Notes: a model not told the origin generated them from the sequence alone. Shown: positions 11,689-31,835, counted from the stretch's first letter. The stretch is 64,000 bases of DNA from Escherichia coli (GCF_041248615.1 NZ_CP158426.1); one strand, 5' to 3'. Numbers and translations are program-made.

Positions 11689-12019
11689 ATCAGCAGCAGA
11701 GCGCAAAGCCGCTCAGAGAGCCAGACAAGCTGCATCTGGTGTGCGTAAGCTGGAGATTGTGCTTGATGCTCAGGAAATTGAAATGCTGGAGCGTAACTGC
11801 GCCGCCCGGCGCCCTGGTCGAGATCCCTATGAAATGGCCGAGTACATCGCGCTGCTGATCCGCCAGGATGATGCCCGGGTGCGCGGGCGTATAAAATCGA
11901 TCAGCAGAAAACGTTGCGGTAAGTGCGGCGAGAGAGTTCCAGTTAATTCATGCCCGTGCAATGGTGACTCGCAATGCTGGGTGACTAAAGGCTGGCATGA
12001 AACGAAATTAATAGTGTGA
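11678..12019 (+). CDS. Hypothetical protein with C-terminal Cys cluster (CGKCG...CPCNGDSQC); candidate regulator
   Basis: 113 aa; stop codon TGA lies inside palindrome GTGACATGTCAC; last gene before packaging module. Confidence 0.45.
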   Translation: MMAKSAAERKAAQRARQAASGVRKLEIVLDAQEIEMLERNCAARRPGRDPYEMAEYIALLIRQDDARVRGRIKSISRKRCGKCGERVPVNSCPCNGDSQCWVTKGWHETKLIV

Positions 12020-12027
12020 CATGTCAC
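12016..12027. repeat. 12-bp perfect palindrome GTGACATGTCAC (copy 1 of 3)
   Basis: Exact palindrome read in sequence; overlaps stop of upstream gene; terminator 41 bp downstream. Confidence 0.9.
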
Positions 12028-12068
12028 GAGTAGATTATGCATGATGAATTTGATGTGTTTTGAATACT

Positions 12069-12094
12069 GCCGCCAACTATGGCGGCTTTATTTT
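12069..12094 (+). terminator. Rho-independent terminator between early/middle genes and packaging module
   Basis: Stem GCCGCCA/TGGCGGC, loop ACTA, followed by TTTATTTT. Confidence 0.7.
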
Positions 12095-12105
12095 GCATGG
12101 TACTA

Positions 12106-12120
12106 TTACCACAACGGTAA
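12106..12120. promoter_or_regulatory. Operator-like palindrome TTACCACAACGGTAA upstream of terS (weaker second site 12124-12138)
   Basis: Perfect half-sites, 18 bp upstream of terS ATG. Confidence 0.5.
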
Positions 12121-12137
12121 CTATTACCACGGTGGTT

Positions 12138-12734
12138 ATGATGCCTGCTGAACCTAAAACCTATAAACGCAAATCAACGCAATTTAAGCCACTAACAGCA
12201 ATGCAGGAGGCTTATTGCCAGTCATACATCAAAACGCCTGAAAACCAGACTCAGGCAGCGATTAACGCAGGATTCTCCCCAAATACAGCGGCAGTTAAAG
12301 CCAGTGTCATGATGCGCGATGAACGCATTCAAAAACGGATTGCCGAGTTGATGGAGGAGCGCAACAAACGAATGCGCGTCAGTGCTGATTACGTTCTCAT
12401 GCGCCTGGTGGAGATCGACCAGATGGACGTGATCGATATCCTCAACGACGATGGGAGCCTTAAACCAATCCGTGAGTGGCCGAAAATCTGGCGCACTACG
12501 CTTAGTGGCTTTGATCTGTCATCGACCATCATGAACATGAACGAGGATTCGATAGAGACAATCCTCAAAAAAATTAAATGGCCTGACAAGGTGAAGAACC
12601 TCGAACTGATTGGTAAGCACGTCGACGTCAACGCATTCAAAGAACGCCTGGATGTTAATGTGAATGTGACAATTGCTGATCGCATAGCGGCAGCCAGGAA
12701 GAGACTGAAAGAACGTCAGGATGGCAATCAGTGA
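12138..12734 (+). CDS. Terminase small subunit
   Basis: LTAMQEAYCQSY...QTQAAINAGFSPNTAAVKAS...RIQKRIAEL resembles small-terminase family signature; track start 12060 lies inside terminator hairpin and is rejected. Confidence 0.75.
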   Translation: MMPAEPKTYKRKSTQFKPLTAMQEAYCQSYIKTPENQTQAAINAGFSPNTAAVKASVMMRDERIQKRIAELMEERNKRMRVSADYVLMRLVEIDQMDVIDILNDDGSLKPIREWPKIWRTTLSGFDLSSTIMNMNEDSIETILKKIKWPDKVKNLELIGKHVDVNAFKERLDVNVNVTIADRIAAARKRLKERQDGNQ

Positions 12735-14206
12735 CAGATACAGCGTTATCTCCTGAAGAGCAGTTAATCGAGGATATTGCAGGGTTCACTCACGATCCGC
12801 TTGGCTATGCCCTCTATGCGTTCCCGTGGGGGGAAGAGGGTACTGAACTGGCACATGCCACCGGTCCACGTCAGTGGCAGGCCGATGCGTTCCGAGAGAT
12901 ACGTGATCACCTGCAGAATCCAGAGACGCGATATCAGCCGCTTATGCTGGCACGTGCTTCTGGTCACGGTATTGGTAAATCCGCATTCATCTCAATGCTG
13001 ATCAACTGGGGCATGTCCACTTGCGAGGATTGTAAGGTCGTGGTGACCGCCAACACCGACAACCAGCTACGAACGAAGACCTGGCCGGAAATTATCAAGT
13101 GGTCGAACCTTGCTATCACGAAAGACTGGTTTACCTGTACCGCTACCGCGATGTACAGCAATGACCCTGGGCACGACAAGCGGTGGCGAGCTGACGCAAT
13201 CCCCTGGTCTGAGCACAACACTGAGGCATTCGCCGGACTACACAACGAGCGCAAACGCATCATCGTGGTATTCGACGAAGCATCCAACATTGCCGATCTG
13301 GTGTGGGAGGTAGCAGAGGGTGCGCTGACGGACGAAGACACTGAGATTATCTGGGTGGCATTCGGAAACCCTACACGTAACACCGGGCGTTTCCGCGAAT
13401 GTTTCCGCAAATATAAACACCGCTGGAAAACTGCGCAGATTGACAGCCGGACGGTGGAAGGCACTAACAAACAGCAGTTGCAGAAATGGGTTGATGACTA
13501 CGGGGAAGACAGCGACTTCGTTAAAATCCGTGTGCGCGGCATATTCCCGGATGCATCTGAATTGCAGTTTATCCCTACCGGCCTTACTGACGAGGCAATG
13601 AAACGGGTGGTAACCGCTGCGCAGGTTGCACATGCTCCGGTGATAATCGGCGTTGACCCGGCATACTCCGGCGTTGATGACGCTGTGATATACCTGCGGC
13701 AGGGGCTGCACAGTAAGGTGCTATGGACTGGTAACAAGACCACCGACGATCTGATTATGGCGAAGCGTATCGCTGACTTTGAAGACCAGTACCAGGCTGA
13801 CGCAGTGTTCATCGACTTCGGTTACGGAACTGGTCTGAAGTCAATCGGTGATGGCTGGGGACGTACATGGCAACTTGTTCCGTTCAGCGGTGCGTCCACT
13901 GACCCGCAGATGCTTAACAAGCGTGGGGAGATGTTCAACTCATGCAAGACATGGCTGAGGCTGGGCGGCATGCTGGATGACCAGGAAACAGCAGACGACC
14001 TGTCGGCGGCAGAGTACAAAGTTCGAGTGGACGGTAAAATCGTTATCGAACCGAAGGAAGATATCAAGGAGCGGCTTGGGCGTTCTCCTGGTAAAGGCGA
14101 TGCGCTACTGCTGACGTTTGCGTTCCCTGTGTCGAAGCGTCTGCGAATTCCCGGGCAGCAGAACCAGCAAGGCAAGGCCATCACAGATTACGATCCATAT
14201 GCTTAA
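12731..14206 (+). CDS. Terminase large subunit
   Basis: 491 aa; Walker A-like ARASGHGIGKS; ATPase and nuclease-type layout; overlaps terS stop. Confidence 0.85.
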   Translation: MTDTALSPEEQLIEDIAGFTHDPLGYALYAFPWGEEGTELAHATGPRQWQADAFREIRDHLQNPETRYQPLMLARASGHGIGKSAFISMLINWGMSTCEDCKVVVTANTDNQLRTKTWPEIIKWSNLAITKDWFTCTATAMYSNDPGHDKRWRADAIPWSEHNTEAFAGLHNERKRIIVVFDEASNIADLVWEVAEGALTDEDTEIIWVAFGNPTRNTGRFRECFRKYKHRWKTAQIDSRTVEGTNKQQLQKWVDDYGEDSDFVKIRVRGIFPDASELQFIPTGLTDEAMKRVVTAAQVAHAPVIIGVDPAYSGVDDAVIYLRQGLHSKVLWTGNKTTDDLIMAKRIADFEDQYQADAVFIDFGYGTGLKSIGDGWGRTWQLVPFSGASTDPQMLNKRGEMFNSCKTWLRLGGMLDDQETADDLSAAEYKVRVDGKIVIEPKEDIKERLGRSPGKGDALLLTFAFPVSKRLRIPGQQNQQGKAITDYDPYA

Positions 14207-14280
14207 TCCGCTGGTGGGGATAATACTGCTGATATCCTCTGGTGAGGATAAAACAAAGCCAGCTCATCGGCTGGCTGTTT

Positions 14281-14292
14281 GTGACATGTCAC
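14281..14292. repeat. 12-bp palindrome GTGACATGTCAC (copy 2 of 3)
   Basis: Exact; 4 bp past stop of minus-strand gene 14297..14653 and directly followed (minus orientation) by hairpin AGCCAGC/GCTGGCT plus T-run. Confidence 0.9.
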
Positions 14293-14296
14293 GGTG

Positions 14297-14653
14297 TTAT
14301 TGCTCGCTTAACTTCTGCTTCAGCAAGTAACCTTCGAGCATCCAGATTTTGTTTACAGCATTCTGCCGGGCAATCTTCCGACCAATTTCTGCATCAAAAT
14401 TTTCCGGACTTGCACAGGCACTCTCTCCGGTGACGGTGAAGCCATTCTTCAGTACCAATACGCAGAAAGTCAGGAGGTCTGTAGATTTATGCGCTGTCCA
14501 TGAATCGCCAACACCCATATTGGCAGCACGAATGCCGTCATAAGCAGTAAAGAAATGCTCTTCAAGAATGATGCTTTCGATATATTGAGGCGTAACGCGC
14601 GGTGCCGTTTTGCCTTTCTCAACGATTTCTTTTTCGATTTGCTGGTCGTTCAT
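14297..14653 (-). CDS. Hypothetical moron protein, antisense to virion genes
   Basis: 118 aa ORF with SD AAGGTGAG upstream of ATG; lies between terL and portal on opposite strand with own terminator; family unknown. Confidence 0.5.
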   Translation of the reverse strand: MNDQQIEKEIVEKGKTAPRVTPQYIESIILEEHFFTAYDGIRAANMGVGDSWTAHKSTDLLTFCVLVLKNGFTVTGESACASPENFDAEIGRKIARQNAVNKIWMLEGYLLKQKLSEQ

Positions 14654-14766
14654 AATCTCACCTTAAAAAAATGCCCGGCGAACCTGGCGAACTGGAAGCA
14701 ATGAGTTATGCCTTCCGTGGCTGTACGGGTTTACAGCATGAAGTCATCGCAATGGCGTCCTGCTGT

Positions 14767-14809
14767 AAAAAAGGGCGGTGATAGTCCTTCAAGGGAAACT
14801 ATCACCGCC
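14767..14809 (-). terminator. Rho-independent terminator downstream of tRNA-Arg
   Basis: 12-bp perfect stem GGCGGTGATAGT/ACTATCACCGCC with A-run on plus strand (T-run on minus). Confidence 0.7.
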
Positions 14810-14852
14810 AAGCCCCTGGAACTTCTGGCATCACGGTCCTTAGGCGTGATTC

Positions 14853-14929
14853 TGGCGTGGCATGCAGGATTCGAACCTGCGACCAACCGCTTAGAAGGCG
14901 GTTGCTCTGTCCGACTGAGCTAATGCCAC
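14853..14929 (-). tRNA. tRNA-Arg (anticodon UCU), phage-encoded
   Basis: 77 nt; reverse complement GTGGCATTAGCTCAGTCGGACAGAGCAACCGCCTTCTAAGCGGTTGGTCGCAGGTTCGAATCCTGCATGCCACGCCA; 7-bp acceptor stem, T-loop GGTTCGAATCC, anticodon loop CTTCTAA, encoded CCA; close to E. coli argU in layout. Confidence 0.85.
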
Positions 14930-15251
14930 AACGCTGAGAGCACTTAGCCTGTTAAGGCGCCACACTTTGTCGCGGCTCCATAAATGCTCTCATCGTTGTA
15001 CCCTCGTCTCTTCCGAGGCGTCACACCGAATCGCCGGGATGGTGAATCCCCGTGCGCGGAATAAAACCGCTCGACTTGCACATTCCGGCTACCTGGTTCG
15101 TTTGCCCGAGCAAGGGAGGGTGCCCCTTAAACGTATCCAGACCGCTATCGGCGCATGTGCCATACACCGTACTGCTCAAAATAAAATCTCACTCCACCTG
15201 TTCAATTTAACGACAGGCCAGTCAGGTTAGTAACCGGAATGAACTCTTTGG

Positions 15252-15266
15252 TTACCTGAAAGGTAA
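15252..15266. promoter_or_regulatory. Operator-like palindrome TTACCTGAAAGGTAA upstream of head gene cluster, followed by ATATGTGGTT-N5-GGTAAT (15309-15329)
   Basis: Perfect TTACC-N5-GGTAA; downstream motif shared with tailspike upstream region. Confidence 0.5.
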
Positions 15267-15356
15267 TAATTTGTGCGTTAAATGTCAACTGTCTACGATA
15301 AATAAATCATATGTGGTTAAATTGGTAATAATTTAATTGCGTACGGAGTCATTGAT

Positions 15357-15563
15357 ATGTGCATGGGTAGCTCACCATCAGTGCCTGCAACACCAGAAGT
15401 TCAGGCAGCACCACAGGAGCAGGATGCCGCCGTTGTTGATGCCCGCGACGAAGAAACTCGTCGCCGTCGCGCTGCTGCTGGTCGTAGTTCTACGCTGCTT
15501 ACCGGTTCTCAGGGCGACACATCAACCGCTAATACCAGCGGTAAAACGCTGCTTGGTCAGTAA
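15357..15563 (+). CDS. Small Ala/Arg-rich head-module protein
   Basis: 68 aa; shares translation initiation context CGGAGTCATTGA(T/A)ATG with portal gene. Confidence 0.4.
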   Translation: MCMGSSPSVPATPEVQAAPQEQDAAVVDARDEETRRRRAAAGRSSTLLTGSQGDTSTANTSGKTLLGQ

Positions 15564-15577
15564 CCGGAGTCATTGAA

Positions 15578-17257
15578 ATGGCGGAAACAACTAAAGAGCG
15601 ATTGAACAAACAGTTCGCACAACTTGAAAGCGAGCGTCAGTCGTTCGAGCCGCACTGGCGCGAGTTGAGTGATTACATCAACCCACGTGGTTCCCGCTTT
15701 CTGACTTCTGAGGTCAACCGTAACGATCGACGCAATACACGCATTATTGATTCGACCGGGACTATGGCGGCGCGCACTCTCGCCAGCGGCATGATGTCAG
15801 GCATCACAAGCCCCGCGCGTCCGTGGTTTCGCCTGGCTACGCCAGATCCTGAAATGATGGATTATGGCCCTGTTAAGTTGTGGCTTGAGGCAGTTCAGAA
15901 CCGCATGAACGATATGTTCAATAAGTCGAATCTCTACCAGTCTCTTCCGCAGTTATACGGAAGCCTCGGCACATACAGCACTGGTGCAATGGCAGTGCTG
16001 GAGGATGACGAGGACATCATTCGCACAATGCCATTCCCGATAGGCAGTTACTACCTGGCTAACTCACCTCGTGGCAGTGTTGACACCTGTTTTCGCAAGT
16101 TCTCTATGACTGTTCGTCAGCTTGTTCAGGAGTTCGGGCTAAATAACGTCAGCGAATCCGTAAAAAGCATGTGGGAAAGCGGCACCTACGAGAAGTGGAT
16201 CGAAGTGATGCATTCGGTTTACCCGAACATTGACCGCGATACATCGAAGCTGGATAGCAAGAACAAGCCATTCAAATCGGTTTATTACGAGGTTGGTGGA
16301 GATAACGACAAGTTGTTGCGTGAGTCCGGATTCGATGAGTTTCCAATTATGGCTCCGCGCTGGGAAGTTAACGGCGAAGATGTTTATGGATCATCATGCC
16401 CGGGTATGCTGGCGCTTGGACCTGTTAAGGCATTGCAGCTTCTCCAGAAGCGCAAGTCGCAGTTGATTGATAAAGCCACCAATCCGCCGATGGTTGCTCC
16501 GACTTCCCTCAAGAATCAGCGCGCCTCCCTTCTTCCTGGCGACATCACGTATATCGATCAGATTACTGGTCAGGATGGCTTCAGGCCTGCTTATCTGGTT
16601 AACCCCAGTACAGCAGATTTGGTGGCAGACATTCAGGACACTCGTCAAATCATTAACAGCGCCTACTTTGTCGATCTGTTCATGATGTTGCAGAACATCA
16701 ATACCCGCTCGATGCCTGTTGAAGCGGTGATCGAAATGAAAGAAGAAAAACTTCTGATGTTGGGGCCGGTTCTGGAGCGTCTGAACGACGAATGTCTTAA
16801 TCCTCTCATTGACCGCGCTTTCTCGATGATGGTGCGCAAAAACATGCTGCCGCCACCGCCTGACGCGATGGAAGGCATGCCCCTGAAGGTCGAATACATT
16901 TCCGTCATGGCTCAGGCGCAGAAGTCTATCGGCCTGTCCAGTCTGGCGTCCACGGTTAACTTCATTGGTCAACTTGCGCAAGCGAAACCAGAAGCTCTCG
17001 ACAAACTCAACGTTGATCAGGCGATCGATGCATTCGCTGATATGTCCGGAGTGTCTCCAACCGTCATTGTTCCGCAGGAACAGGTTGAGCAGGCTCGCCA
17101 GCAACGGGCACAGCAACAACAGCAGCAACAAATGATGGCGATGGGGATGGCGGCGGCACAGGGGGCCAAGACGCTAAGCGAAGCTAAAACTTCGGATCCG
17201 AGTGTGTTGTCAGCTATGGCGAATGCAGTTAGTGGTCAGGGTGGGCAATCACAATGA
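15578..17257 (+). CDS. Portal (head-to-tail connector) protein, podovirus type
   Basis: 559 aa, position after terL, C-terminal Q-rich tail; resembles T7 gp8-type connector by recollection. Confidence 0.75.
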   Translation: MAETTKERLNKQFAQLESERQSFEPHWRELSDYINPRGSRFLTSEVNRNDRRNTRIIDSTGTMAARTLASGMMSGITSPARPWFRLATPDPEMMDYGPVKLWLEAVQNRMNDMFNKSNLYQSLPQLYGSLGTYSTGAMAVLEDDEDIIRTMPFPIGSYYLANSPRGSVDTCFRKFSMTVRQLVQEFGLNNVSESVKSMWESGTYEKWIEVMHSVYPNIDRDTSKLDSKNKPFKSVYYEVGGDNDKLLRESGFDEFPIMAPRWEVNGEDVYGSSCPGMLALGPVKALQLLQKRKSQLIDKATNPPMVAPTSLKNQRASLLPGDITYIDQITGQDGFRPAYLVNPSTADLVADIQDTRQIINSAYFVDLFMMLQNINTRSMPVEAVIEMKEEKLLMLGPVLERLNDECLNPLIDRAFSMMVRKNMLPPPPDAMEGMPLKVEYISVMAQAQKSIGLSSLASTVNFIGQLAQAKPEALDKLNVDQAIDAFADMSGVSPTVIVPQEQVEQARQQRAQQQQQQQMMAMGMAAAQGAKTLSEAKTSDPSVLSAMANAVSGQGGQSQ

Positions 17258-17550
17258 CAGATTACGAAGACGATCAACTGAAAGAAGAAAACGCCCGTAA
17301 GCAACGTGACATGGCGCAGCGTGAAATTGATGACATTCGCTTTGTCATGAGCAGTGAACAGGGGCGTCGCGTTGTCTGGTCGGTGCTGGAGAAAGGCCGT
17401 GTGTTTTCCGCTATCTCACCGATGGACGCTATGGCAATGGCATTTAATGAGGGGCAACGCAATCTGGCGCTGGAACTGTTTCAGCGCGTTATGGCGCATT
17501 GCCCTGAACAGTATTTGAAGATGGCCAAAGAGGCCAGTGAACAGGAGTGA
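17254..17550 (+). CDS. Hypothetical head-module protein
   Basis: 98 aa, overlaps portal stop. Confidence 0.45.
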   Translation: MTDYEDDQLKEENARKQRDMAQREIDDIRFVMSSEQGRRVVWSVLEKGRVFSAISPMDAMAMAFNEGQRNLALELFQRVMAHCPEQYLKMAKEASEQE

Positions 17551-18248
17551 TCATGAATTTATTTGAGCGTTTGCTGTATCGCCGTCTTTGCAATGAGCAA
17601 CCAGTCGATGGTGGAGCAGCTCCGGCTGCGTCAGAACCGTCAGCGCCTGCAGGTGATAACCATGCTCCAGTTGGTGATCCATCACAACCGGAAGGTGATA
17701 AGTCACAACCTGTTGCTGATGGCGATAAACCTGCTGATGACAAAAATCCTGAAAACGATAAGCAGGATGAAAAAAAGGACGGCGATAAACCAGAGGGTGC
17801 GCCTGAGAAGTACGAGTTTCAGGCTGCCGAAGGCGTAGAGCTGGATACAGAAGCGTTGAAGGAATTCGAGCCGGTGGCGCGAGAACTAAACCTGACCAAC
17901 GAGCAAGCGCAAAAGCTGGTTGATGCTTATCCGAAGATTCTGGCAGGTGTTCAGCAGCGCCAGGTAGAAGCCTGGCAGAAAACAACCGAGCAGTGGGCTG
18001 CGGATGTAAAAGCTGACAAAGAAATCGGTGGCGACAAGTTGATTTCTAACCTTAGCGCCGCACAGCGTGCGCTTGACCAGTTCGGGACACCTGAACTCAA
18101 AGAATATCTGAACACCACCGGGCTGGGTAATCACCCTGATCTGGTCAAAACGTTCGTGAAAATCGGAAAGGCGATGTCTGAAGATGGCATGGTCACCGGT
18201 GGTAATGAAGGCCAGCGTAGTGCGGCCGAAGTGCTCTATGGCAAATAA
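17547..18248 (+). CDS. Scaffolding protein (putative)
   Basis: 233 aa, acidic low-complexity N-terminus, helical C-terminus, located between portal and capsid genes. Confidence 0.55.
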   Translation: MIMNLFERLLYRRLCNEQPVDGGAAPAASEPSAPAGDNHAPVGDPSQPEGDKSQPVADGDKPADDKNPENDKQDEKKDGDKPEGAPEKYEFQAAEGVELDTEALKEFEPVARELNLTNEQAQKLVDAYPKILAGVQQRQVEAWQKTTEQWAADVKADKEIGGDKLISNLSAAQRALDQFGTPELKEYLNTTGLGNHPDLVKTFVKIGKAMSEDGMVTGGNEGQRSAAEVLYGK

Positions 18249-18256
18249 GAGAGGAA

Positions 18257-19249
18257 ATGACAATGGCTGTTAAAGGCTTAACTGCGCTAACGCTGGCTGA
18301 CTGGGGTAAGCGCGTCGATCCAAACGGGAAAGTCGATAAGATTATCGAGCTTCTCGGTCAAACTAACCCGATCCTTCAGGATATGCCTTTTGTCGAAGGG
18401 AACCTTCCTACCGGACACCGAACCACCATTCGTTCTGGTTTACCTTCAGCTACCTGGCGTTTGCTGAACTATGGCGTACAGCCAAGCAAATCAACCACAG
18501 TGCAGGTAACCGATTCCGTTGGCATGCTGGAAACCTATGCGGAAGTCGATAAGTCACTGGCTGATCTGAACGGCAATACCGCCGAATTCCGCCTGTCTGA
18601 AGACCGCGCATTTATTGAAGCGATGAATCAGCAGATGGCGCAGACGCTGTTTTATGGTGATTCCAGCGTTAACCCTCAGCAGTTTATGGGACTGTCCTCC
18701 CGCTATTCCAGCCTGTCTGCGGGTAATGCTCAGAATATCATTGATGCTGGTGGCACGGGTACAGATAACACCTCAATCTGGTTAGTGGTGTGGGGCGAAA
18801 ACACCGTGCATGGCATCTTCCCGAAAGGGCAGAAGGCTGGCATCCAGATGGAAGATAAAGGCCAGGTGACACTGGAAGATGCTAATGGCGGCAAGTACGA
18901 AGGCTATCGCACCCATTACAAATGGGATAACGGACTTGCTCTGCGTGACTGGCGTTATGTTGTTCGCATTGCAAACATCGATGTCAGCAATCTTTCAGAA
19001 CCATCCTCTGCCGCAAATATTGCGAAGTTGATGGTTAAAGCACTACATCGCATTCCAAACCGTGGCATGGGCCGCCCGGTGTTCTACATGAACCGCACTG
19101 TAGGCCAGGCTCTTGATCTGCAGTCTCTGGAGAAAACATCTCTGGCTATCAGCGTAAAAGAGACAGAAGGCGAGTGGTGGACTTCATTCCGTGGTGTACC
19201 AATCCGTGAAACTGATGCGCTTCTGGAAACAGAAGCCCGCGTGGTGTAA
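18257..19249 (+). CDS. Major capsid protein
   Basis: 330 aa; position after scaffold; followed by hairpin GTGGGTC/GACCCAC (19266-19285). Confidence 0.7.
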   Translation: MTMAVKGLTALTLADWGKRVDPNGKVDKIIELLGQTNPILQDMPFVEGNLPTGHRTTIRSGLPSATWRLLNYGVQPSKSTTVQVTDSVGMLETYAEVDKSLADLNGNTAEFRLSEDRAFIEAMNQQMAQTLFYGDSSVNPQQFMGLSSRYSSLSAGNAQNIIDAGGTGTDNTSIWLVVWGENTVHGIFPKGQKAGIQMEDKGQVTLEDANGGKYEGYRTHYKWDNGLALRDWRYVVRIANIDVSNLSEPSSAANIAKLMVKALHRIPNRGMGRPVFYMNRTVGQALDLQSLEKTSLAISVKETEGEWWTSFRGVPIRETDALLETEARVV

Positions 19250-19300
19250 CGCCTGTTATTAACCTGTGGGTCGTAACAGACCCACTAATGGAGAAAGAAG

Positions 19301-19738
19301 ATGATCACCGACAAACTGTTGATGTTCTCCGAAGCTCAGGCGGTTACGAATACCGCGGCTTCTACTGACGTAATCGATCTCGGTCCAATTGACGGAAAAC
19401 GTCGTGATATCGGCGTGGGTTACCCGCTTGAGTTTTGGGTGCTGGTTAACGCAGCCGCCGCAGCAAGCGGTGATGCAACTGTAAACATCCAGTTGCAGAC
19501 GAGTGAGAATAACACCTCATGGACCACTATTTATGATAGTGGCGCACTGGTAAAGACCGCCCTGACAGCAGGTAAACGAGTTGTTTCTGCAAAGGTGCCT
19601 GCCGGTGTTCAGCGATATCTGCGTGTTAACTACTCCGTCGCAACTGGCCCACTAACGGCCGGCAAATTCACTGCGGGTATCAGTCTGGATGCTGATGCCA
19701 ATACGCCGTACCCGATCCGCTCAAAAGTAACTGGTTAA
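19301..19738 (+). CDS. Putative capsid decoration / minor structural protein
   Basis: 145 aa, directly after major capsid gene. Confidence 0.4.
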   Translation: MITDKLLMFSEAQAVTNTAASTDVIDLGPIDGKRRDIGVGYPLEFWVLVNAAAAASGDATVNIQLQTSENNTSWTTIYDSGALVKTALTAGKRVVSAKVPAGVQRYLRVNYSVATGPLTAGKFTAGISLDADANTPYPIRSKVTG

Positions 19739-19739
19739 G

Positions 19740-20084: not shown

Positions 20085-20100
20085 GCCTCGCGAATCAGAC

Positions 20101-23534: not shown

Positions 23535-23998
23535 TGATCGATGTTCAAATTATTCCCGCTACCGAAGAGCATCTTCAGATGATTTTGCCGGATGTTCGTC
23601 AGGCTGATATTGACGAACTGTATGCGGTATCGCTGATGACTACCGAAGATGCGCTGCGCGTTGGTCTTCGCACTGCGACTATGGCCTGGTCAGGGTTCGC
23701 GAACGGAGAACTGGTAACCATGTTTGGTGTATCTCCGGCGTCAATGATCGGTGGCAATGGTACGCCCTGGCTGGTAGGAACCAGCCGTATTGAAAAATAT
23801 CAGAAGACATTTCTGCGCCACTGCCGCCCTGTATTGCAGCAGATGCTGGCAGTTTATCCGCGCCTGGAAAACTACGTCGACGAGCGAAACCATGTTGCCA
23901 AAGCATGGCTGCACTGGCTTGGATTCAGGCTTGAAGAAGCCGCGCCTTATGGTGCTCTTGGTCTTAATTTCCACAGATTTCACATGGAGAGAAAATAA
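23534..23998 (+). CDS. Hypothetical virion protein
   Basis: 154 aa, overlapping start/stop with neighbours. Confidence 0.4.
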   Translation: MIDVQIIPATEEHLQMILPDVRQADIDELYAVSLMTTEDALRVGLRTATMAWSGFANGELVTMFGVSPASMIGGNGTPWLVGTSRIEKYQKTFLRHCRPVLQQMLAVYPRLENYVDERNHVAKAWLHWLGFRLEEAAPYGALGLNFHRFHMERK

Positions 23999-24543
23999 TG
24001 TGCGATCCGGTTATTGCTGGTGGCGCAATGCTCGCCATGAGTGGCATTCAGGCATACACCCAGTACCAACAGGGAAAGTATGCCTCGAAGGTTGCAGAAG
24101 CGAACGCAGATATAGCCACAGCTCAGGCAAATGATGCAATAAACAGAGGTAACGCTGAAGCTGAGCAACGGCGCAGAGAGACCCGGCAGCGGCTTGGTAC
24201 TCAAGCGGCGACAATGGGGGCGACCGGCGCCGATTTATCTACCGGTAACGCGCTGGATATATTTGGCGACACTGCCCAGTTTGGCGCTCTTGATTCGCTG
24301 ACGACGGTGAATAACGCGCAACGCGAGGCTTACGGTTATCAGGTTCAGGCTGCCAACTATAAAGCAGAAGCCAGTTCAGCCCGTAAACAGGGGAATGTGG
24401 GAGCAGCAACAACATTGCTCACTGCGCCTCTGAAGGCATACGGTGCGTACCAGATGTTTGGTGGGACGTGGAGTCCGTTTACTCAAAGCACTCCTGCGCC
24501 AATCGGGGCAGCAGCAGGAACCAGATTACCCGGAGGATTATAA
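23998..24543 (+). CDS. Putative internal virion protein (small, Ala/Gln-rich)
   Basis: 181 aa, N-terminal hydrophobic segment; position like T7 gp14. Confidence 0.45.
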   Translation: MCDPVIAGGAMLAMSGIQAYTQYQQGKYASKVAEANADIATAQANDAINRGNAEAEQRRRETRQRLGTQAATMGATGADLSTGNALDIFGDTAQFGALDSLTTVNNAQREAYGYQVQAANYKAEASSARKQGNVGAATTLLTAPLKAYGAYQMFGGTWSPFTQSTPAPIGAAAGTRLPGGL

Positions 24544-27056
24544 TGCCAGTCGTACCAACAGTATCCGGACGTCAGGTTGAGAGCCGTGGAGTTCAGTCAG
24601 CAGGCTTGCAGACGTTTTCTCAGCCAGGTATTGGTGATGCTTTTGTTCGGGCAGGGGCAGAGGCTATTGATGTTTTTGGTCAGGCAAAACAGCGTGCCAA
24701 TATCGCTCTGGCTCAGGAGGCATCTCTTAACCTCAGTCAGATAAGCAGCGATCTGCTGAATAACCCTGAAACAGGTTTGCTTAACCTGAAAGGGAAAAAT
24801 GCTATTGGAAAAGGTCAGGAGTATACGCAGCAGTTTGATGCTCGGGCCGAACAACTGGCTATGTCGCTGCCGGATGAACAGGCTCGTAATGCTTTCATGC
24901 AGCAGGCGCAGCAGCAGCGCATTCAGTTCACTACGCAGGCAGGGCGGCACGAGATAGGGCAAATAAATGCCTACGAAGAAGGCCAGTTTCAGGCTACGCT
25001 GCTGAACAATGGTAAAAATGCCGCAGCATTGTATGGCGACAACGCCGCATACGTATTGGCTAATAAGCAAACTTTCCAGCAAATTGAGGATTACGGCATT
25101 GCACATGGCTGGAGTGACGAGCAAATCCAGGCCAAGAAAATCGAGTTTAAAGAGAAGGTTGCTGATGCCGCATTGTCCCAGTGGTCGGCAAACAATGCGA
25201 CCGCATTCATCCAAAGTAATGGCGAGTTAAGTGATACTGCTGCTGGAGCTCGCCGTGCTGTAGCAGATAGTGACTCTTCCGAGCGTGCCCGTGGCATACG
25301 CAACAATAACCCAGGAAATCTCGAATACAGCAAAACTAATCCGTGGGTAGGCCAGACCGGTGATGATGGTCGATTTGCTAAATTCGAAACACCTGAACAC
25401 GGGATTCGTGCATTAGGGCGGAACCTGATGTCGTATCAGAGGCAGGGTATTGATACCGTCAGCGAGATAATTAATCGCTGGGCACCGCCTACTGATAAAA
25501 ATGACACTATGTCGTATATCAAAGCAGTGTGCGAACAACTTGGCGTTTCTGCTGATGAGCCTCTCGATGCATCTAATCCTGATACCCTGAAGGCGCTTTG
25601 TGCAGCCATTATCCATCATGAGAACGGTAGCCAGCCATACAGTGATCAGCAGTTAACTGCTGGTGTCAGTGCAGCACTTGGTTTATCAACAATTCCAACC
25701 AACACCAAACGCTATACCGGTAATGCAGCATTCGATGCGGCATCTCCTGAGGCGCAGGCAAGTTTTATGCGACAGGCGGATCAACTGCGTCGGCAGCAGC
25801 AGGCTGAATATAAAACGATGATTGACAGCCAGGTTCGCGATGCGACAGCTGCGTATATGCGTGGCGTTGAATTTCCTAACCCACCTGGTGAGGCTGATTT
25901 TATTGCAGCTTATGGAGTAAGAGAAGGAAACCTGCGATATACCGAGTTCAGAAATACGCAAATCGCCGGACAGTATATAGGCTCTTTCCGCAACATGCCG
26001 ACAAGCAGCATTACAGCATATGTTGAGCAATTACGCCCGGATACTGGTGAGACAGGGGAGGGTTATGCGGCACGAGCCGCTCTTTATGACAACGTTGTGT
26101 CGGCTGCAAGTCAGGTGATAAAGCAGCGACAGGCTGATCCTGTACAGTTCTCTCTTGCCGCCGGACAGGCAAAGCCTATCGACATGAGCAATAAGGATAA
26201 CTTTGGACAGAGCGTTGCCTTGCGTGCTGCTCAGGTCAGTGACCTTGCTAAGTCATATGGCACTCCACTGACGTTCTTTTCCAAAGACGAGGCCAATCAG
26301 ATCGGTGTTTTCTTTCGTGATGCGCCCGTTTCCCAACAGGCAGCATATCTCGATACCATCAGGCAGAGCACTGGTGGTGGGCAGGTGTATATGTCAGCAC
26401 TACAGCAGATCAGTGCCAACGCTCCATCTGCTGCCGTTGCCGGGATACTGATGGATAAGCCAGGTGGTATTTTGGCAGAAAAAAACTGGTTTAATCCGGA
26501 TGTTTCCGTGTCTCCTGAAACCGCTGCGCAGACAATTCTTGCTGGCGCGGCGGCTCGTAAAGGTACTGATGATGCGAAAGGTATTCCGATGCCTAAAGAT
26601 GCTGATCTTCGCCTTGAGTTTTCTGACATGGTGAAGGATGCATTTGCTGGTGACGCTCAGGGGGCATCAATGGCATACGAGATCGCAAAGGATTATTACG
26701 CTGGTGTGATGGCGAAAAAAGGCGTGGTATCAGGCGAAATTGACAATGATGTCTGGAAACAGGCTGTTAACGTAGCTACAGGTGGCGTGCATGACTATAA
26801 CGGAATGGGGAATGTCCTTTTGCCGTGGGGAATGTCTGCAGAGCAATTCGATAAGCAGGTTAATCAGGTTTGGAATGAACAAGTTGTCGGCTCCGGGATA
26901 AAAACACCGCCTGGTCAGTATGGTTTGCAAAGTTACGGCGATAGTCAGTATCTGGTGAAACTTGGTACTGGTTATCTGCTGAAAGATGATGGTTCTCCCG
27001 TTGTTCTTAATCTGACACAGAAGCGTCAGAGATTCTCCGGAGATATTCCGCAATGA
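24543..27056 (+). CDS. Large internal virion / ejection protein, possible cell-wall hydrolase region
   Basis: ATG 24543 overlaps upstream stop (track start 24468 rejected); conserved GIRNNNPGNLEY segment. Confidence 0.5.
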   Translation: MPVVPTVSGRQVESRGVQSAGLQTFSQPGIGDAFVRAGAEAIDVFGQAKQRANIALAQEASLNLSQISSDLLNNPETGLLNLKGKNAIGKGQEYTQQFDARAEQLAMSLPDEQARNAFMQQAQQQRIQFTTQAGRHEIGQINAYEEGQFQATLLNNGKNAAALYGDNAAYVLANKQTFQQIEDYGIAHGWSDEQIQAKKIEFKEKVADAALSQWSANNATAFIQSNGELSDTAAGARRAVADSDSSERARGIRNNNPGNLEYSKTNPWVGQTGDDGRFAKFETPEHGIRALGRNLMSYQRQGIDTVSEIINRWAPPTDKNDTMSYIKAVCEQLGVSADEPLDASNPDTLKALCAAIIHHENGSQPYSDQQLTAGVSAALGLSTIPTNTKRYTGNAAFDAASPEAQASFMRQADQLRRQQQAEYKTMIDSQVRDATAAYMRGVEFPNPPGEADFIAAYGVREGNLRYTEFRNTQIAGQYIGSFRNMPTSSITAYVEQLRPDTGETGEGYAARAALYDNVVSAASQVIKQRQADPVQFSLAAGQAKPIDMSNKDNFGQSVALRAAQVSDLAKSYGTPLTFFSKDEANQIGVFFRDAPVSQQAAYLDTIRQSTGGGQVYMSALQQISANAPSAAVAGILMDKPGGILAEKNWFNPDVSVSPETAAQTILAGAAARKGTDDAKGIPMPKDADLRLEFSDMVKDAFAGDAQGASMAYEIAKDYYAGVMAKKGVVSGEIDNDVWKQAVNVATGGVHDYNGMGNVLLPWGMSAEQFDKQVNQVWNEQVVGSGIKTPPGQYGLQSYGDSQYLVKLGTGYLLKDDGSPVVLNLTQKRQRFSGDIPQ

Positions 27057-28855
27057 GTTACTTTGGCCTTAATCCAGTAAACCAGAATCAGCAGCTTGAC
27101 GAAGCAGCATCAAATCCAGCTGGCTTTAACAGCGATGTTGGTTTTTTCGACAATGCTGTAGGAGCGGCATTGTCTGGTTTGTACTCCGGGCTGGTGGCAA
27201 AGCCAGATCAGTTGCTATGGGCAGGGATGGATAAAATCGTATCCCCGATTGCTCAGTTTGTTAACGAAAACACCTCGCTCAATGACACTTCAGTTTCATA
27301 CATTGCTGAGCAGAGAAAACTAGCAGAGCAGCAGGTTAAGCGGCTGACGCCTGATGCCGCGACAACCGGAACCGCCGGGCAGGTTCTTTATGGGTTGTTC
27401 GATATGGGCGGGCAGGCTGTTGTCGGTACAACGCTCGGTGGTCCTGTCGGAGGTGCAGCGGCGGTAACTTCGCTACAGGGTTTTTCTGAGTTTGAACGGC
27501 TGACAGCACAGGGTGTTGATTTCAGGACGGCGAAGGAAGCGGGATTAGTGCAGGGCATTACTGCTGGTGCCGGAACACTGATCCCTATGAGCCTCGGGTT
27601 ACGTGCTGGTGGTGCGCTGGCGGAAGGTGTGGCGGCTCAGCTTGCGCGGACGGGTGAAAGTTCAGTGCGACGCGCCGCAGCAACAGCAGTACGTGCAACG
27701 CCAGATATTGCCTATGCCGCAGGTACAAATATTGCGTTCGGTATGGCACAGCGTGGGCTTACTGCAAAAACGCTTCGTGATGGTGGCTATAGCGAAATGG
27801 CTAACCAGTATGATGTGTTGGATCGACAGGCAATTGCTATTGATGCTGTTCTTGGGGTGGCGTTTGGTGGTGTCGGCAGATTTATTAACTCTCGCGGCGA
27901 GTCTACAAGCGCACCAAATTTTTCACCAGTTGATATTGATGCTGCACTGGCGGCGAATGCCGCTCATCATGCTGAAATTGATATTGCTCCCGGCGTTCCG
28001 ATCAACGTGCTTTCGCGTAATTCGCACATTCAGGCTCTGCGAAAAGCCATGTCTGATGTTAGCCAGGGGAGACCTGTAGACGTTGCCAGCATTGTTGAGT
28101 CTGCATCTTTCAGTGAAATTCCTGGGCCCAAGAGTCTGCTGTCTCAGGCAGTTAATGAGGCTCTGTCATCTGTAGATGATGGAGTAACGGCGCGCGCTAT
28201 AGAAAATCGGTTGCTTGAAGAACAGGCCGCGCAGCTTTTGTCGCGTGGCGATAGACAGGTTTACCAGTCTGAAATCGCTAATAGCCAACGAATTATTGAA
28301 AATCTCACTGAACAGCGCGCACAAATTCTTGCAGAAGAGCCAACCGGGAGCGGTAAGGCTTTATCTCGTGCTCGATCAGATAAACAGGCCAGACTTCGCG
28401 ATATTGATCAACGAATCCGGCAGGCACAAGAACGCCTGGAATTTTCCCGTAACGCGTTGGCACCGCACGAGCCTGGCGGTCAGTTTTTTGAAGCTCGAGC
28501 AGAACTGGCACGACGACAGCAGGCAGAAAGTGAACTTAATGCTCAGGCTGTTTCATTCTATAAAACAGCAGAGGTCAGGACGCCAGACGAAGTAGCTCCT
28601 TTTGAGCCCGGTAAGATATTGCAACAGACAGAACAAAAAATGATGGCAGATCCGGCAGGAGATATTGATCTGCGTATAGCTGAAGACTCGCTGCTTGAAT
28701 CTCCGGACATGATAATCACCGTGCTGGATGATGATGGTAATCCACAATCGCGCAGTGCGCGTGAAGTACTGGATGAAGCGAACAGGGAAAGTGAGCAGGC
28801 AATACAGGATTCCAGCCTGTTTGATGTCGCTGTGGCGTGTTTCTTGAGAGGTTAA
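27053..28855 (+). CDS. Internal virion / ejection protein
   Basis: 600 aa, Ala/Gly-rich, overlapping upstream stop. Confidence 0.5.
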   Translation: MSYFGLNPVNQNQQLDEAASNPAGFNSDVGFFDNAVGAALSGLYSGLVAKPDQLLWAGMDKIVSPIAQFVNENTSLNDTSVSYIAEQRKLAEQQVKRLTPDAATTGTAGQVLYGLFDMGGQAVVGTTLGGPVGGAAAVTSLQGFSEFERLTAQGVDFRTAKEAGLVQGITAGAGTLIPMSLGLRAGGALAEGVAAQLARTGESSVRRAAATAVRATPDIAYAAGTNIAFGMAQRGLTAKTLRDGGYSEMANQYDVLDRQAIAIDAVLGVAFGGVGRFINSRGESTSAPNFSPVDIDAALAANAAHHAEIDIAPGVPINVLSRNSHIQALRKAMSDVSQGRPVDVASIVESASFSEIPGPKSLLSQAVNEALSSVDDGVTARAIENRLLEEQAAQLLSRGDRQVYQSEIANSQRIIENLTEQRAQILAEEPTGSGKALSRARSDKQARLRDIDQRIRQAQERLEFSRNALAPHEPGGQFFEARAELARRQQAESELNAQAVSFYKTAEVRTPDEVAPFEPGKILQQTEQKMMADPAGDIDLRIAEDSLLESPDMIITVLDDDGNPQSRSAREVLDEANRESEQAIQDSSLFDVAVACFLRG

Positions 28856-28860
28856 ATTAA

Positions 28861-31335
28861 ATGAGACAGGAATGTATACAAGCGGTCCAGCAGGCGGCGC
28901 AGCGCACGTTAACGGCGCGAGAAATACAGAACATTGAAGACCGCATTTATCGAAATATGCGCTCCATTGCTCGTGATGACCCGATGTCGTGGAGACAACT
29001 TTCCGAATCAGAGCGGCTATATCGTGCAGCACAATTGGCATCTGAGGAATTACAGCGAGAAGCGGCATTAAAGAAACGTCGTGTGGCCCTCACTATAGCC
29101 GCACGTCAGAGATTGGATAAATTTATCAATAGCTATCAAGGGGCTGATGGGAAACTTGGCGCTCTTAACCGTACTATTGCTTTTAATGCAGACGGTAAAT
29201 CGAATTTCCTCTCTGTTGAGTCCAGAACAAAAGCCACTCGTGATTATGCATTGAGTCAATTGCAGGAGGCATTCGAAGCAGTTGATCCTCGCTTTTTTGG
29301 TCTGTTTGAAGATGAAGCGGGCGTACGTGACCTGGTATATGAAATGCGAGGGCAAAATACTGGCAATTCTAAAGCAAGAAAAGGTGCTAAGGCGTGGAGA
29401 GAAGTGACAGATCTACTGCGCCGCCGGTTTAATGATGCTGGTGGGGACATTGGCTATCTCGAAAACTGGGGGATCCCTCAGCATCATTCTATGGAAAAGG
29501 TTGGGGCGGTATCAAAGGATAAGTGGGTTAGCGATGTTATAGGTAAGCTGGATCGCAAATATTATATCCGAGCCGATGGACAACTGATGAACGATGCCGA
29601 GTTGTCTGCATTTCTTGGAGAGGCTTATAACACGATCGCTACTGGTGGGCTGAATAAGCTTACTGATACCGGAATGCGAATTTCCGGCGCACGTGCTAAC
29701 CGTGGTAATGCATCACGACAGATACATTTCAAAGATGCAGATTCCTATCTGCAATATCAGCAACTTTATGGCGATCGCTCTCTATGGGAAATCATGGTCG
29801 GTCACCTGGAAGGTATCAGTAAAGATATTGCACTGGTGGAAACATATGGCCCAAACCCCGATCATGTTTTCCGCTCTCTTCTTGATCAGGTGAAGGCAGA
29901 AACGGCAACAGCTAACCCGAGTAAAACCGGTAAAGTCGAGCGGCTGGCGAACAACACAGAGAATCTGTACAACTTTATTTCCGGAAAGACACAGCCTGTA
30001 GCGAATCCGCACATCGCGCGATGGTCTGACAATATCCGCAACTGGCTGGTTGCCAGCAGACTCGGATCTGCGTTGCTATCATCGTTCTCTGATCTTGGAA
30101 CCATGTATCTGTCTGCGAAGGTGACCAACCTTCCAATGAACCAGTTATTCCGCAACCAGCTTGAAGCTATGGACCCAACGAACCGTACAGAACTTGCGCG
30201 GGCGCGCCGCGCTGGTCTGGCGATGGAATCTCTACTTGGCAGCGTTAACCGCTGGGCGATGGATAATATGGGGCCGTCAGTGTCTCGTTGGGCGGCAACG
30301 GCGGTAATGCGTGCCAGTGGGCTTACAGCATGGTCAGATGCGCACAAGCGCGCCTATGGCGTAACCATGATGGGAAGCCTGGGAGAAGTAGTGTCACGGA
30401 CACCAGACCTTCGTAGCCTCGATGATTCTGATTTTCGTATCCTGAAAAGCAAAGGGATTACTGACACAGACTGGAGCGTATGGAAGCTGGCGCAACAGGA
30501 GGACTGGGGGAACGGTAATAATACGATGCTGACACCGGAAAGCATTATGCGTATCCCTGATTCAGCAGTTAAACATCTTGGTGAGCCTGAGCGCGTGAAA
30601 TTTGAGGCAATGCGTAAATTGCTAGGTGCCGTAACTGAAGAAGTTGATATGGCTGTTATTACACCGGGAGCTCGTGAGCAACTGATAACCGGTTCTGGTA
30701 TTCAGCGTGGAACATGGAAAGGTGAATTAACGAGAAGTGTTTTCCTGTTTAAATCTTTCCCTATCTCGGTTGTTATGCGTCACTGGTCACGCGCTATGGG
30801 TATGCCGTCTGCTGGTGGGCGTGCGGCATATATTGCGACGTTTATTGCCAGTACGACCATTCTTGGCGCTTTGTCGCAGCAACTTAACGACCTTGCGTCT
30901 GGTCGTAATCCTCGAGAGATGACAGGAGAAGATGCCGCAAAATTCTGGCTTGGTGCTCTACTGAAAGGTGGTGGTCTTGGCCTTTACGGTGACTTTTTAT
31001 TGTCAGATCACACCAGGTACGGAAGCGGCGCGCTGGCGTCGATGCTTGGCCCGGTAGCTGGTCTGGTTGATGACGTGGTGAAGATTGCTCAGGGCATACC
31101 GTTAAATGCTGTGGAAGGGAAGAGTGAGCAGACTGGTGGTGATCTGGTGAAGCTGGGGAAAGGTTTGATGCCTGGTGCGAATCTCTGGTATTTGAAGGCG
31201 GCTCTCGATCACATGATCTTTAACCAGATGCAGGAGTATTTTTCACCAGGCTATTTGCGTAAAATGGAGCAACGTTCGAAGAAAGAGTTTAACCAGACAT
31301 ACTGGTGGCGACCTCAGGATGTCACTCCGCAATAA
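28861..31335 (+). CDS. Large internal virion / ejection protein
   Basis: 824 aa, third of three consecutive large genes before tailspike. Confidence 0.5.
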   Translation: MRQECIQAVQQAAQRTLTAREIQNIEDRIYRNMRSIARDDPMSWRQLSESERLYRAAQLASEELQREAALKKRRVALTIAARQRLDKFINSYQGADGKLGALNRTIAFNADGKSNFLSVESRTKATRDYALSQLQEAFEAVDPRFFGLFEDEAGVRDLVYEMRGQNTGNSKARKGAKAWREVTDLLRRRFNDAGGDIGYLENWGIPQHHSMEKVGAVSKDKWVSDVIGKLDRKYYIRADGQLMNDAELSAFLGEAYNTIATGGLNKLTDTGMRISGARANRGNASRQIHFKDADSYLQYQQLYGDRSLWEIMVGHLEGISKDIALVETYGPNPDHVFRSLLDQVKAETATANPSKTGKVERLANNTENLYNFISGKTQPVANPHIARWSDNIRNWLVASRLGSALLSSFSDLGTMYLSAKVTNLPMNQLFRNQLEAMDPTNRTELARARRAGLAMESLLGSVNRWAMDNMGPSVSRWAATAVMRASGLTAWSDAHKRAYGVTMMGSLGEVVSRTPDLRSLDDSDFRILKSKGITDTDWSVWKLAQQEDWGNGNNTMLTPESIMRIPDSAVKHLGEPERVKFEAMRKLLGAVTEEVDMAVITPGAREQLITGSGIQRGTWKGELTRSVFLFKSFPISVVMRHWSRAMGMPSAGGRAAYIATFIASTTILGALSQQLNDLASGRNPREMTGEDAAKFWLGALLKGGGLGLYGDFLLSDHTRYGSGALASMLGPVAGLVDDVVKIAQGIPLNAVEGKSEQTGGDLVKLGKGLMPGANLWYLKAALDHMIFNQMQEYFSPGYLRKMEQRSKKEFNQTYWWRPQDVTPQ

Positions 31336-31344
31336 GGAAGTGTT

Positions 31345-31518
31345 GTGTTTTTAATTATTTTGAGTGTAATAATTTCTGGTGGATTGTTATTTATTGACCA
31401 CTACAAATATTTTCTTAACCCTCAGACTCAAGCTATTTGCTGGTTCATCTTTGTTGTGCAGGGAGTAGTTCTTGTTGCAAGCCTTATTGAGGGGAGGCCT
31501 CTTATTTTTACTGGGTAA
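31345..31518 (+). CDS. Possible small hydrophobic protein (57 aa)
   Basis: GTG 31345 with SD AAGGA 5 nt upstream; hydrophobic translation; below track threshold. Confidence 0.3.
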   Translation: MFLIILSVIISGGLLFIDHYKYFLNPQTQAICWFIFVVQGVVLVASLIEGRPLIFTG

Positions 31519-31530
31519 ATAGGTGACTAC

Positions 31531-31827
31531 ATGCAAGCTATAGGATTCATTGTTTATATCGTCGTTGGTCTTTTTCAGTTGGCAGCAATTATGGCTGGGC
31601 TTGAATCATGGTGGGGATTGCACTGGATAATTGCAGCCCCCATCGCTTTCATCGTGAGCTATATTCCATTTGTTGGAGCGATTGTTGGTATGGTTGGCGC
31701 TGTGGATGTATGGCGGTGGGAGTGGTGGCAGGCTGGCCTTCTATTCTTTGGTGGGATAATCTTTGCTATTGTCTGCGGTGGAATGTCATCATTTTTCGAA
31801 TGGCTATCATTCAGAAAAGAGACGTGA
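31531..31827 (+). CDS. Small integral membrane protein (3 predicted TM helices)
   Basis: 98 aa, highly hydrophobic; stop TGA lies inside GTGACATGTCAC. Confidence 0.5.
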   Translation: MQAIGFIVYIVVGLFQLAAIMAGLESWWGLHWIIAAPIAFIVSYIPFVGAIVGMVGAVDVWRWEWWQAGLLFFGGIIFAIVCGGMSSFFEWLSFRKET

Positions 31828-31835
31828 CATGTCAC
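31824..31835. repeat. 12-bp palindrome GTGACATGTCAC (copy 3 of 3)
   Basis: Exact; overlaps stop codon of membrane protein gene; terminator hairpin starts at next base. Confidence 0.9.

Follow-up and report, generated by a model that had tools for sequence, protein, structure and literature searches.

A palindrome at gene ends of an epsilon15-type prophage is conserved across unrelated phages together with a putative regulator gene

The 64,000-nucleotide stretch of Escherichia coli DNA analyzed here (GCF_041248615.1 NZ_CP158426.1; hereafter the window) carries, from base 1 to ~39200, a prophage of the epsilon15/phiV10 type belonging to the genus Uetakevirus. The sequence corresponds to bases 1440001-1504000 of the chromosome of E. 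coli NRZ14408 (NZ_LT599825.1). We investigated a 12-bp palindrome, GTGACATGTCAC, which occurs in the window exactly three times, at 12016-12027 (site 1), 14281-14292 (site 2) and 31824-31835 (site 3; all three listed without strand), as a preliminary description of this DNA had reported. Shuffled windows contain 0.01 copies on average, and none of 100 shuffles reached three. Allowing two mismatches added chance-level matches alone to this set, and a search of the 64 kb for GTGAC-N(0-8)-GTCAC returned nothing beyond the three copies.

Each copy is placed between the end of a gene and an intrinsic terminator. Site 1 overlaps the TGA (12017-12019) of a plus-strand gene at 11681-12019, which closes the early-right gene block and encodes a 112-aa protein of the epsilon15 gp49 / N15 gp46 family (phrog_536), our candidate for the protein that binds the palindrome. 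A plus-strand terminator follows after 41 nt (12069-12094, GCCGCCAACTATGGCGGC + TTTATTTT; a terminator scan gives the hairpin and T-run at 12069-12086), and the probable small terminase gene (terS) starts ~110 nt from the site. Site 2 lies between the convergent terL, on the plus strand, and a minus-strand gene at 14297-14653 whose stop is 4 nt away. It abuts a minus-strand terminator (14247-14276, AGCCAGCCGATGAGCTGGCT + TTGTTTTATC; 14276-14257 in the scan, 4 nt after the site) that becomes contiguous with the palindrome when A-T pairs are counted. Site 3 overlaps the TGA (31825-31827) of the gene at 31531-31827, which ends the portal-to-injection block; it is found directly 5' of a plus-strand terminator (31836-31863, AGGCCGCTTTCGCGGCCT + TGTTTTTAAC; 31836-31853 in the scan, 0 nt after the site) and faces the end of a leftward antirepressor operon. 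Every hairpin with its T-run is oriented with the gene ending at its site. The order first described, gene end, palindrome and terminator, is thus present at each copy, with the TGA inside sites 1 and 3.

The preliminary description had taken the palindrome for a dedicated cis element and proposed a search of related phages, in which its absence from homologous positions would speak against such a role. This search found the palindrome in place. Relatives from E. coli, Salmonella and Klebsiella, whose DNA is at best ~80% identical to the window, carry GTGACATGTCAC at the same three junctions, with the motif at 39612, 2142 and 19517 in epsilon15, at 38653, 2174 and 19662 in SPN1S, and at the record ends (site 1), 2262 and 19493 in phiV10; the Klebsiella phages Kp4865-1 and BUCT711 have it at two of the three junctions each and carry extra copies. 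In site-anchored alignments, all 12 columns of site 2 are invariant (five genomes), against 7/40 in the left and 6/40 in the right flank; for site 3 the counts are 12/12, 3/40 and 4/40. Site 1, kept in epsilon15, SPN1S and the two Klebsiella phages, has 11/12 invariant columns, against 4/40 in its non-coding right flank, its left flank being the coding sequence of the 11681-12019 gene. To the left of site 3, the upstream gene has been swapped for unrelated genes in phiV10/SPN1S and in epsilon15, and the palindrome stays. Moreover, six Uetakevirus genomes were compared, and in each of them no 12-bp palindrome other than GTGACATGTCAC is repeated. Kept at all three homologous positions while the flanks diverge, it has the conservation expected of a selected, dedicated element.

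We extended the comparison to 80 close relatives from IMG/VR, one of which is phiV10, with a record cut within site 1, leaving 79 complete site-1 loci. An exact site 1 is present in 75 of the 79, and an exact site 2 in ~50 of the 80; the other site-2 loci have single-base variants (GTGATATGTCAC, GTGACATGTCAA and GTGACATGCCAC, roughly a dozen loci among the 80) or another cassette. Site 1 of phiV10, split across the ends of the record (39101-39104 + 1-8, locus L002), reads GTGACATGTTAC (11/12), and this variant or GTGAAATGTCAC is also found in a few prophages (L043, L044, L062, L072). We considered whether the phiV10 genome physically ends within site 1 and rejected this, coordinate 1 being the authors' choice after the last stop codon. 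A divergent Uetakevirus relative, L148, has kept the regulator gene (~50% identity) and two exact 12-mers (2952 and 10994), both away from the regulator stop: one over the stop of an unrelated open reading frame, the other between the cement-protein gene and the next gene. The structural relatives YeP5 (Yersinia) and MPK9 (Pseudomonas) share the capsid/injection module with the window prophage, not the early genes, and contain no comparable repeated palindrome. The element is therefore not part of the capsid/injection module.

The motif also accompanies the gene of the 11681-12019 family into unrelated phages, where its general form is GTGAC-NN-GTCAC. We surveyed loci anchored on homologs of the 11681-12019 product. 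A profile search built from 10 closer sequences, with one genome per species, gave 72 loci (1.24 Mb) from ~25 genera, among them Citrobacter, Pantoea, Erwinia, Xenorhabdus, Providencia, Pectobacterium, Yersinia, Serratia, Morganella, Proteus and Rahnella, with one Paraglaciecola. The motif is present in 66 of the 72 loci and occurs 95 times in all, against an expectation of 1.18. When the earlier loci are added, 54/85 have a site between 20 nt before and 40 nt after the regulator's stop codon. No motif was found in 152 kb of controls without the gene (lambda, YeP5, MPK9 and a 25-kb host flank). The gene that the preliminary description had named as encoding a candidate binder (given there as 11678-12019) is thus the one that co-occurs with the motif.

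The individual phages show how far this association extends. In N15, GTGACTGGTCAC overlies the stop codon of gene 46, whose product is ~32-35% identical to the window protein; of the three N15 copies, the second lies within repA and the third, as the reverse complement of GTGACTGGTCAC, after gene 33, ~25 nt upstream of the -35 box of a TTGACG-17-TAGAGT promoter. The stop-codon copy is present in 49/49 N15-like IMG/VR loci (48 with a TG centre and one with GG), and the repA copy in all those whose sequence extends far enough upstream. In another N15-like lineage (L096/L097), the regulator is 54% identical to the protein of the window. In L096 the regulator gene is, by tblastx, the only part common with the window prophage, and three exact copies of GTGACATGTCAC occupy positions homologous to the N15 sites. 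Three exact copies are also carried by the Pectobacterium myovirus ZF40, one of them 3 nt after the homolog gp22. On the homolog's stop codon, the P2-like Yersinia phage vB_YenM_56.17 has GTGACGCGTCAC, and the lambdoid prophages L094 and L095 have GTGACCTGTCAC and GTGACCGGTCAC. The Vibrio siphovirus K308 and the locus L152 each contain three GTGAC-[GC/AC]-GTCAC, one just before the small terminase gene; megablast of L152 against the phage collection found nothing, and its kinship with K308 is read solely from gene order and the places of its sites. The motif is also found within genes, just before the next Shine-Dalgarno sequence or upstream of a promoter (in N15-like phages, ZF40, Vibrio phages and others), and it ends 0-3 nt before the next gene's ribosome-binding site at N15 gene 47, in L096, in L148 and at terS of L152 and K308. 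The only tandem arrangement seen is in a P2-like prophage (L151, ~14416-14467), where two intergenic sites, GTGACATGGCAC and GTGACATGTCAC, are ~21 bp apart.

The copy within repA of N15-like phages made it possible to assess selection inside a coding sequence. It encodes Val-Thr-Ser-His, and across 20 distinct contexts third-position changes occur in 0/4 of its codons against 23/30 flanking codons (P ~0.003 at the flank rate). Altogether, this shows that the motif is under selection and co-occurs with the regulator gene in unrelated phages. A chance repeat, or the functionless relic of a duplication, has the short length of the motif in its favor and nothing else; the shuffles, the excess of sites in gene-bearing loci, the status of sole repeated palindrome in six genomes and flanks that share no similarity leave it a practically negligible probability, and chance is excluded by the comparative data.

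We then examined the protein itself. The 11681-12019 product matches phrog_536 'transcriptional regulator' (E=1e-54), a family of 776 clusters at 90% identity that occurs in Enterobacterales, in Vibrio and in a single genome of the Alteromonadales. Searches of Pfam, PDB sequences, NCBIfam and PADLOC brought no match for the protein, and a Foldseek search of its model against the PDB gave nothing significant. An alignment of 56 sequences displays a basic N-terminal segment (AERKAAQRARQ), a conserved core, and an invariant CxxC (C79, C82) with C99 in at least 90% of the sequences; in the 10 closer sequences C91 is invariant as well, together with C79, C82 and C99. The AlphaFold2 model (pLDDT, predicted local distance difference test, of 91.5) comprises an extended segment at 22-29, helices at 30-42 and 52-75, a small Cys-rich hairpin and a last helix. 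Our prediction is that the protein probably binds DNA as a ribbon-helix-helix dimer and carries an added zinc-ribbon-like domain, the C-terminal Cys4 motif being the predicted zinc ribbon. The 'gp46' of a 2025 telomere-phage proteome paper was considered as a member of this family and rejected, since under that paper's numbering it is the CB repressor.

A cognate pair of protein and operator would predict that dispersed sites change together with the protein allele, and such a change is seen in L096. This phage has an 'AT'-type protein allele, and all three of its homologous sites are AT-centred where N15 has TG/CA; in repA, the change of centre entails a Ser-to-Cys substitution in RepA. We also compared putative recognition-strand residues with the centre dinucleotide in 85 loci. 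The K-[LIVM]-E-L type goes mostly with AT, RRD with CA/TG, NE[IV]RARL with GC, and the Vibrio types with AC/GC, which is suggestive only of strand residues that may partly track the centre.

These results bear on whether the phage might instead exploit a site for a host protein such as MatP, SlmA or another host factor. MatP, the organizer of the E. coli Ter macrodomain, recognizes matS (consensus GTGACRNYGTCAC), a 13-bp site with a 3-bp centre, and the SlmA consensus is GTGAGTACTCAC, with G5 and C8. The likeness to matS extends to the GTGAC/GTCAC half-site, a binder containing a ribbon-helix-helix, and dispersed single palindromes that may be bridged. However, the present motif is 12 bp long with a spacing that is always 2 bp, in the window as elsewhere; its proposed binder is phage-encoded and unrelated in sequence to MatP, and its sites are carried by phage genomes and not by Ter. 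No 13-mer matS was found in the window or in the other Uetakevirus and N15-like genomes searched. The window sites have C5 and G8, departing from the SlmA consensus at both positions. In addition, neither gene-lacking phages of the same hosts nor the 25-kb host flank contain the motif, which accompanies the phage gene into Vibrio, Pectobacterium, Xenorhabdus and Paraglaciecola and whose centre changes in concert with the phage protein allele. We regard a host-protein site as very unlikely. A single 13-mer fitting the matS consensus, GTGACACCGTCAC, occurs in the Vibrio phage K308 (L156, 19491), beside its three 12-mers.

We further investigated whether the element acts at the RNA level, the preliminary description having proposed an element coupled to termination, bound by a termination or antitermination factor, or an RNA processing site. 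Transcribed as GUGACAUGUCAC 5' of the terminators, it would be bound by such a factor or cut by an RNase. All three prophage copies do precede a hairpin and U-run in the direction of transcription, the N-terminal helix of the protein is arginine-rich, and terminator-like hairpins within 70 nt are enriched ~3-fold at 131 motif sites (25% against 7.8% of random positions). Per direction, adjacency to a terminator is 12.6% at these sites against 6.6% at mechanically defined ends of open reading frames. Yet 75% of the 131 sites have no nearby terminator: adjacency is enriched and is no defining feature of the motif, so the proposed coupling to termination does not hold as its hallmark. As RNA, GTGACATGTCAC forms a marginal hairpin (-1.2 kcal/mol), no better than shuffles. 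The palindrome lies outside the terminator stems, which fold independently of it in context, and we found no alternative pairing between the two at the three sites; the palindrome does not form part of the GC-rich stem-loop and T-run of an intrinsic terminator. Among Rfam families, window bases 1-40000 match tRNA-Arg, isrK and C4 alone at the gathering score, none of them at the three sites. The half-sites are invariant, with no compensatory changes in homologs down to 32-38% identity; invariance without covariation is typical of protein-DNA recognition and not of RNA stems. Furthermore, the asymmetric centre of N15 is read in both orientations relative to transcription, and the modeled fold resembles ribbon-helix-helix proteins that bind double-stranded DNA. 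An RNA element, whether processed or bound, is therefore unlikely.

The preliminary description had also noted that the prophage lacks a recognizable Q-like antiterminator, and indeed neither Q nor N protein is present in its annotation. Antitermination systems such as lambda Q/qut and N/nut, and RfaH/ops, share with the present case a cis element upstream of phage-operon terminators and a small zinc-containing factor. Their factors are loaded once, at or near the promoter or on RNA, and are then processive, whereas here there is one palindrome per junction, independent of orientation. N15, ZF40 and the N15-like L096 carry Q in addition to the regulator gene and the sites, which do not lie beside their late promoters. 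This argues against the system being a stand-in for Q.

The palindrome could alternatively mark a junction for recombination or module exchange, as a preferred crossover or cleavage site, or could be a packaging signal recognized by terminase. Homology breaks exactly at the palindrome on the left of site 3, on the right of site 1 and on both sides of site 2, the Klebsiella phages have an extra LexA-controlled gene right after site 1, and in Uetakeviruses, L152 and K308 the small terminase gene is closely preceded by a copy. Against this, the intragenic copies with conserved flanks (N15 repA, 20 contexts) are no junctions, no recombinase or nuclease co-occurs with the motif, and any conserved island in a mosaic genome resembles a breakpoint; in addition, cos and terS have no copy close by in N15, ZF40 or the lambdoid prophages. 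Both roles appear improbable to us.

We favor a reading in which GTGACATGTCAC is the double-stranded DNA operator of the ribbon-helix-helix/zinc-ribbon-like protein encoded at 11681-12019, with the bound sites most likely acting as roadblocks or boundaries; from the sequence comparisons, we give this a probability of roughly 0.6. Confidence is high that the element is functional and tied to the 11681-12019 gene, moderate that the protein binds it, as predicted from sequence, and low to moderate for the roadblock or boundary mechanism.

Under this mechanism, one copy built into the 3' end of the regulator's gene would let gene and site be inherited as a unit, the other copies being scattered over the same phage genome. 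In the window prophage, the three copies may mark 3' boundaries of transcription units: site 1 the end of the early-right unit, site 2 the junction of terS-terL with a leftward gene cassette that also holds a tRNA-Arg gene, and site 3 the end of the portal-to-injection unit, facing the leftward antirepressor operon. The Rep operators annotated in epsilon15 lie upstream of terS, gp3 and the tailspike gene, and their positions therefore imply separate transcription units. The site-2 terminator has a T-run inadequate for plus-strand transcripts, and the site-3 terminator has none for minus-strand transcripts. Both would act one way, with the palindrome occupying the place where the opposite direction would need a T-run. 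A dimer bound there could stop transcription from the unprotected side, so that hairpin and protein would together insulate both ways. A dimer bound at site 1 would restrict transcription running on from the early operon into the terminase genes, and a polymerase stalled before the gene's own stop codon may exert feedback on synthesis of the protein through non-stop mRNA. The site positions would thus fit a DNA-bound regulator of passage across boundaries, whichever the direction of its effect.

Several points weigh against the operator and roadblock reading. The association of regulator and sites is correlational, with binding that is predicted, and the roadblock mechanism is purely inferred. 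A roadblock directly upstream of a working terminator, as on the plus strand at sites 1 and 3, looks redundant, and the intragenic copies (N15 repA, the Klebsiella gp13-like gene) misfit a simple boundary role. More distant homologs lack any nearby site (L090, L150 and 6/72 species loci), and in L148 and some Providencia and Xenorhabdus loci the sites lie elsewhere, with none at the gene end. Single-base site variants occur in prophages and phiV10. The link between strand residues and centre is loose, AT centres being found with several strand types.

The closest known kind of system is the ribbon-helix-helix repressor with its operator, as in P22 Arc and Mnt, CopG, MetJ, AmrZ and the antitoxins ParD and TacA. 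As in these pairs, an inverted repeat is tied to the protein, and controls without the gene lack sites. The protein studied here differs by an extra basic helix at its N-terminus and a zinc-ribbon-like Cys4 domain at its C-terminus, and it matches none of the Pfam families. Its putative operators lie over its own stop, at the 3' ends of other operons or within genes, and not at its own promoter; they come as 2-4 dispersed single sites and not as tandem arrays.

For the copy at the gene's own 3' end, lacI offers an analogy. A LacI roadblock at the lacI 3' end (O3) reportedly leads to tagging of truncated LacI by transfer-messenger RNA (tmRNA), as described by Abo et al. in 2000. In both cases, the 3' end of the regulator's gene holds the regulator's binding site, and occupancy there would truncate the mRNA before the stop and block read-through. 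This is an analogy only, with another protein family, and here the site is over the stop codon itself in most lineages. Extending it, one may picture a portable 'boundary module', exchanged horizontally, in which a protein with a site over its own stop is autoregulated via tmRNA and seeded roadblock copies turn one-way terminators into two-way insulators. Such a module would give temperate phages a means of termination and insulation that acts in trans and is programmed by sequence. We hold this picture to be speculative and rather doubtful.

Two other dispersed palindromes invite comparison. N15 (L098) and L096 contain a second repeated family, CGACC/GGACC-N2-GGTCC, in 4-7 copies, which we take to be the dispersed SopB centromere sites. 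These resemble the present motif as one short palindrome in several scattered copies, some near promoters, served by one phage protein. They differ in sequence and in their ParB-family protein, and the present motif is also carried by integrated prophages that need no partition. The Rep operators of epsilon15/SPC32H (ATTACC-N5-GGTAAT) are likewise multi-copy palindromic operators spread over the same phage genome, with another sequence and promoter-proximal positions; two lie in the window at 12105-12139, downstream of site 1. The palindrome as operator of the prophage repressor was considered and rejected on this basis, the annotated 'repressor' sites of epsilon15 being these ATTACC-N5-GGTAAT sequences.

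A ribbon-helix-helix regulator with a palindromic operator is an already known kind of system. Literature searches for the 12-mer motif found nothing relevant, and the palindrome is unannotated in the epsilon15, phiV10 and N15 records. By searchable literature and GenBank annotations, what appears new is this family and its motif, an operator within the regulator's own stop codon, and dispersed copies at operon ends and within genes in at least seven unrelated phage backbones. Should the inference be right, it would provide a function and a recognition sequence for the widespread phrog_536 family, which has neither, and reveal an unannotated regulatory layer in epsilon15, phiV10, SPN1S, N15 and ZF40. 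The N15 sites are within repA, at gene 46 and ahead of a promoter-like sequence from which the anti-immunity operon may be transcribed; those of Uetakeviruses bracket the terminase genes and close the structural operon. The system bears on how podoviruses without Q delimit their transcription units, on the use of DNA-bound roadblocks as insulators by phages, and on why a regulator would have its operator over the stop codon of its own gene. For synthetic biology, the 12-bp site and the 112-aa protein would make a compact part.

The start of terS affects how the surroundings of site 1 are read. The start given by RefSeq and in phiV10, TTG 12060, would put the site-1 terminator within coding sequence and would also enclose the two Rep-type operators (ATTACC-N5-GGTAAC at 12105-12121 and ATTACC-N5-GGTTAT at 12123-12139). 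The epsilon15 annotation and the translation (…VVMMPAEPK) suggest that the real start is the ATG at 12138 or 12141 (12138-12143). Near site 2, a Chi site (GCTGGTGG) lies at 14210-14217, right after the terL stop and ~40 nt before the terminator, and the adjacent minus-strand gene is a RefSeq 'Gp49 family protein' that is unrelated to epsilon15 gp49.

In the Klebsiella Uetakeviruses, an additional exact copy of the palindrome lies within the gp13-like gene, with more variants of the N2 centre within genes (L004, 24674 and 36317; L005, 26462 and 23066), and a LexA-box promoter (TACTGT-N8-ACAGTA) with the extra gene is inserted directly after site 1 (L004, ~12710-12770). At the end of the lysis cassette, the stop of an Rz-like gene may hold a decayed fourth site: the window has ATAGCATGGCAT there (~39136-39147), and at the same stop (L006, 26722; L003, ~26616) SPN1S reads GTGACATGTCAT (11/12) and epsilon15 GTGACATGGCAT. 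Finally, the Rfam matches on the minus strand at 33625-33809, isrK (33733-33809) and the C4 antisense RNA (33625-33708), lie just upstream of the BRO-N/antirepressor gene (32866-33576), a pair that constitutes an anti-immunity RNA control of the P1/N15 type within a Uetakevirus.

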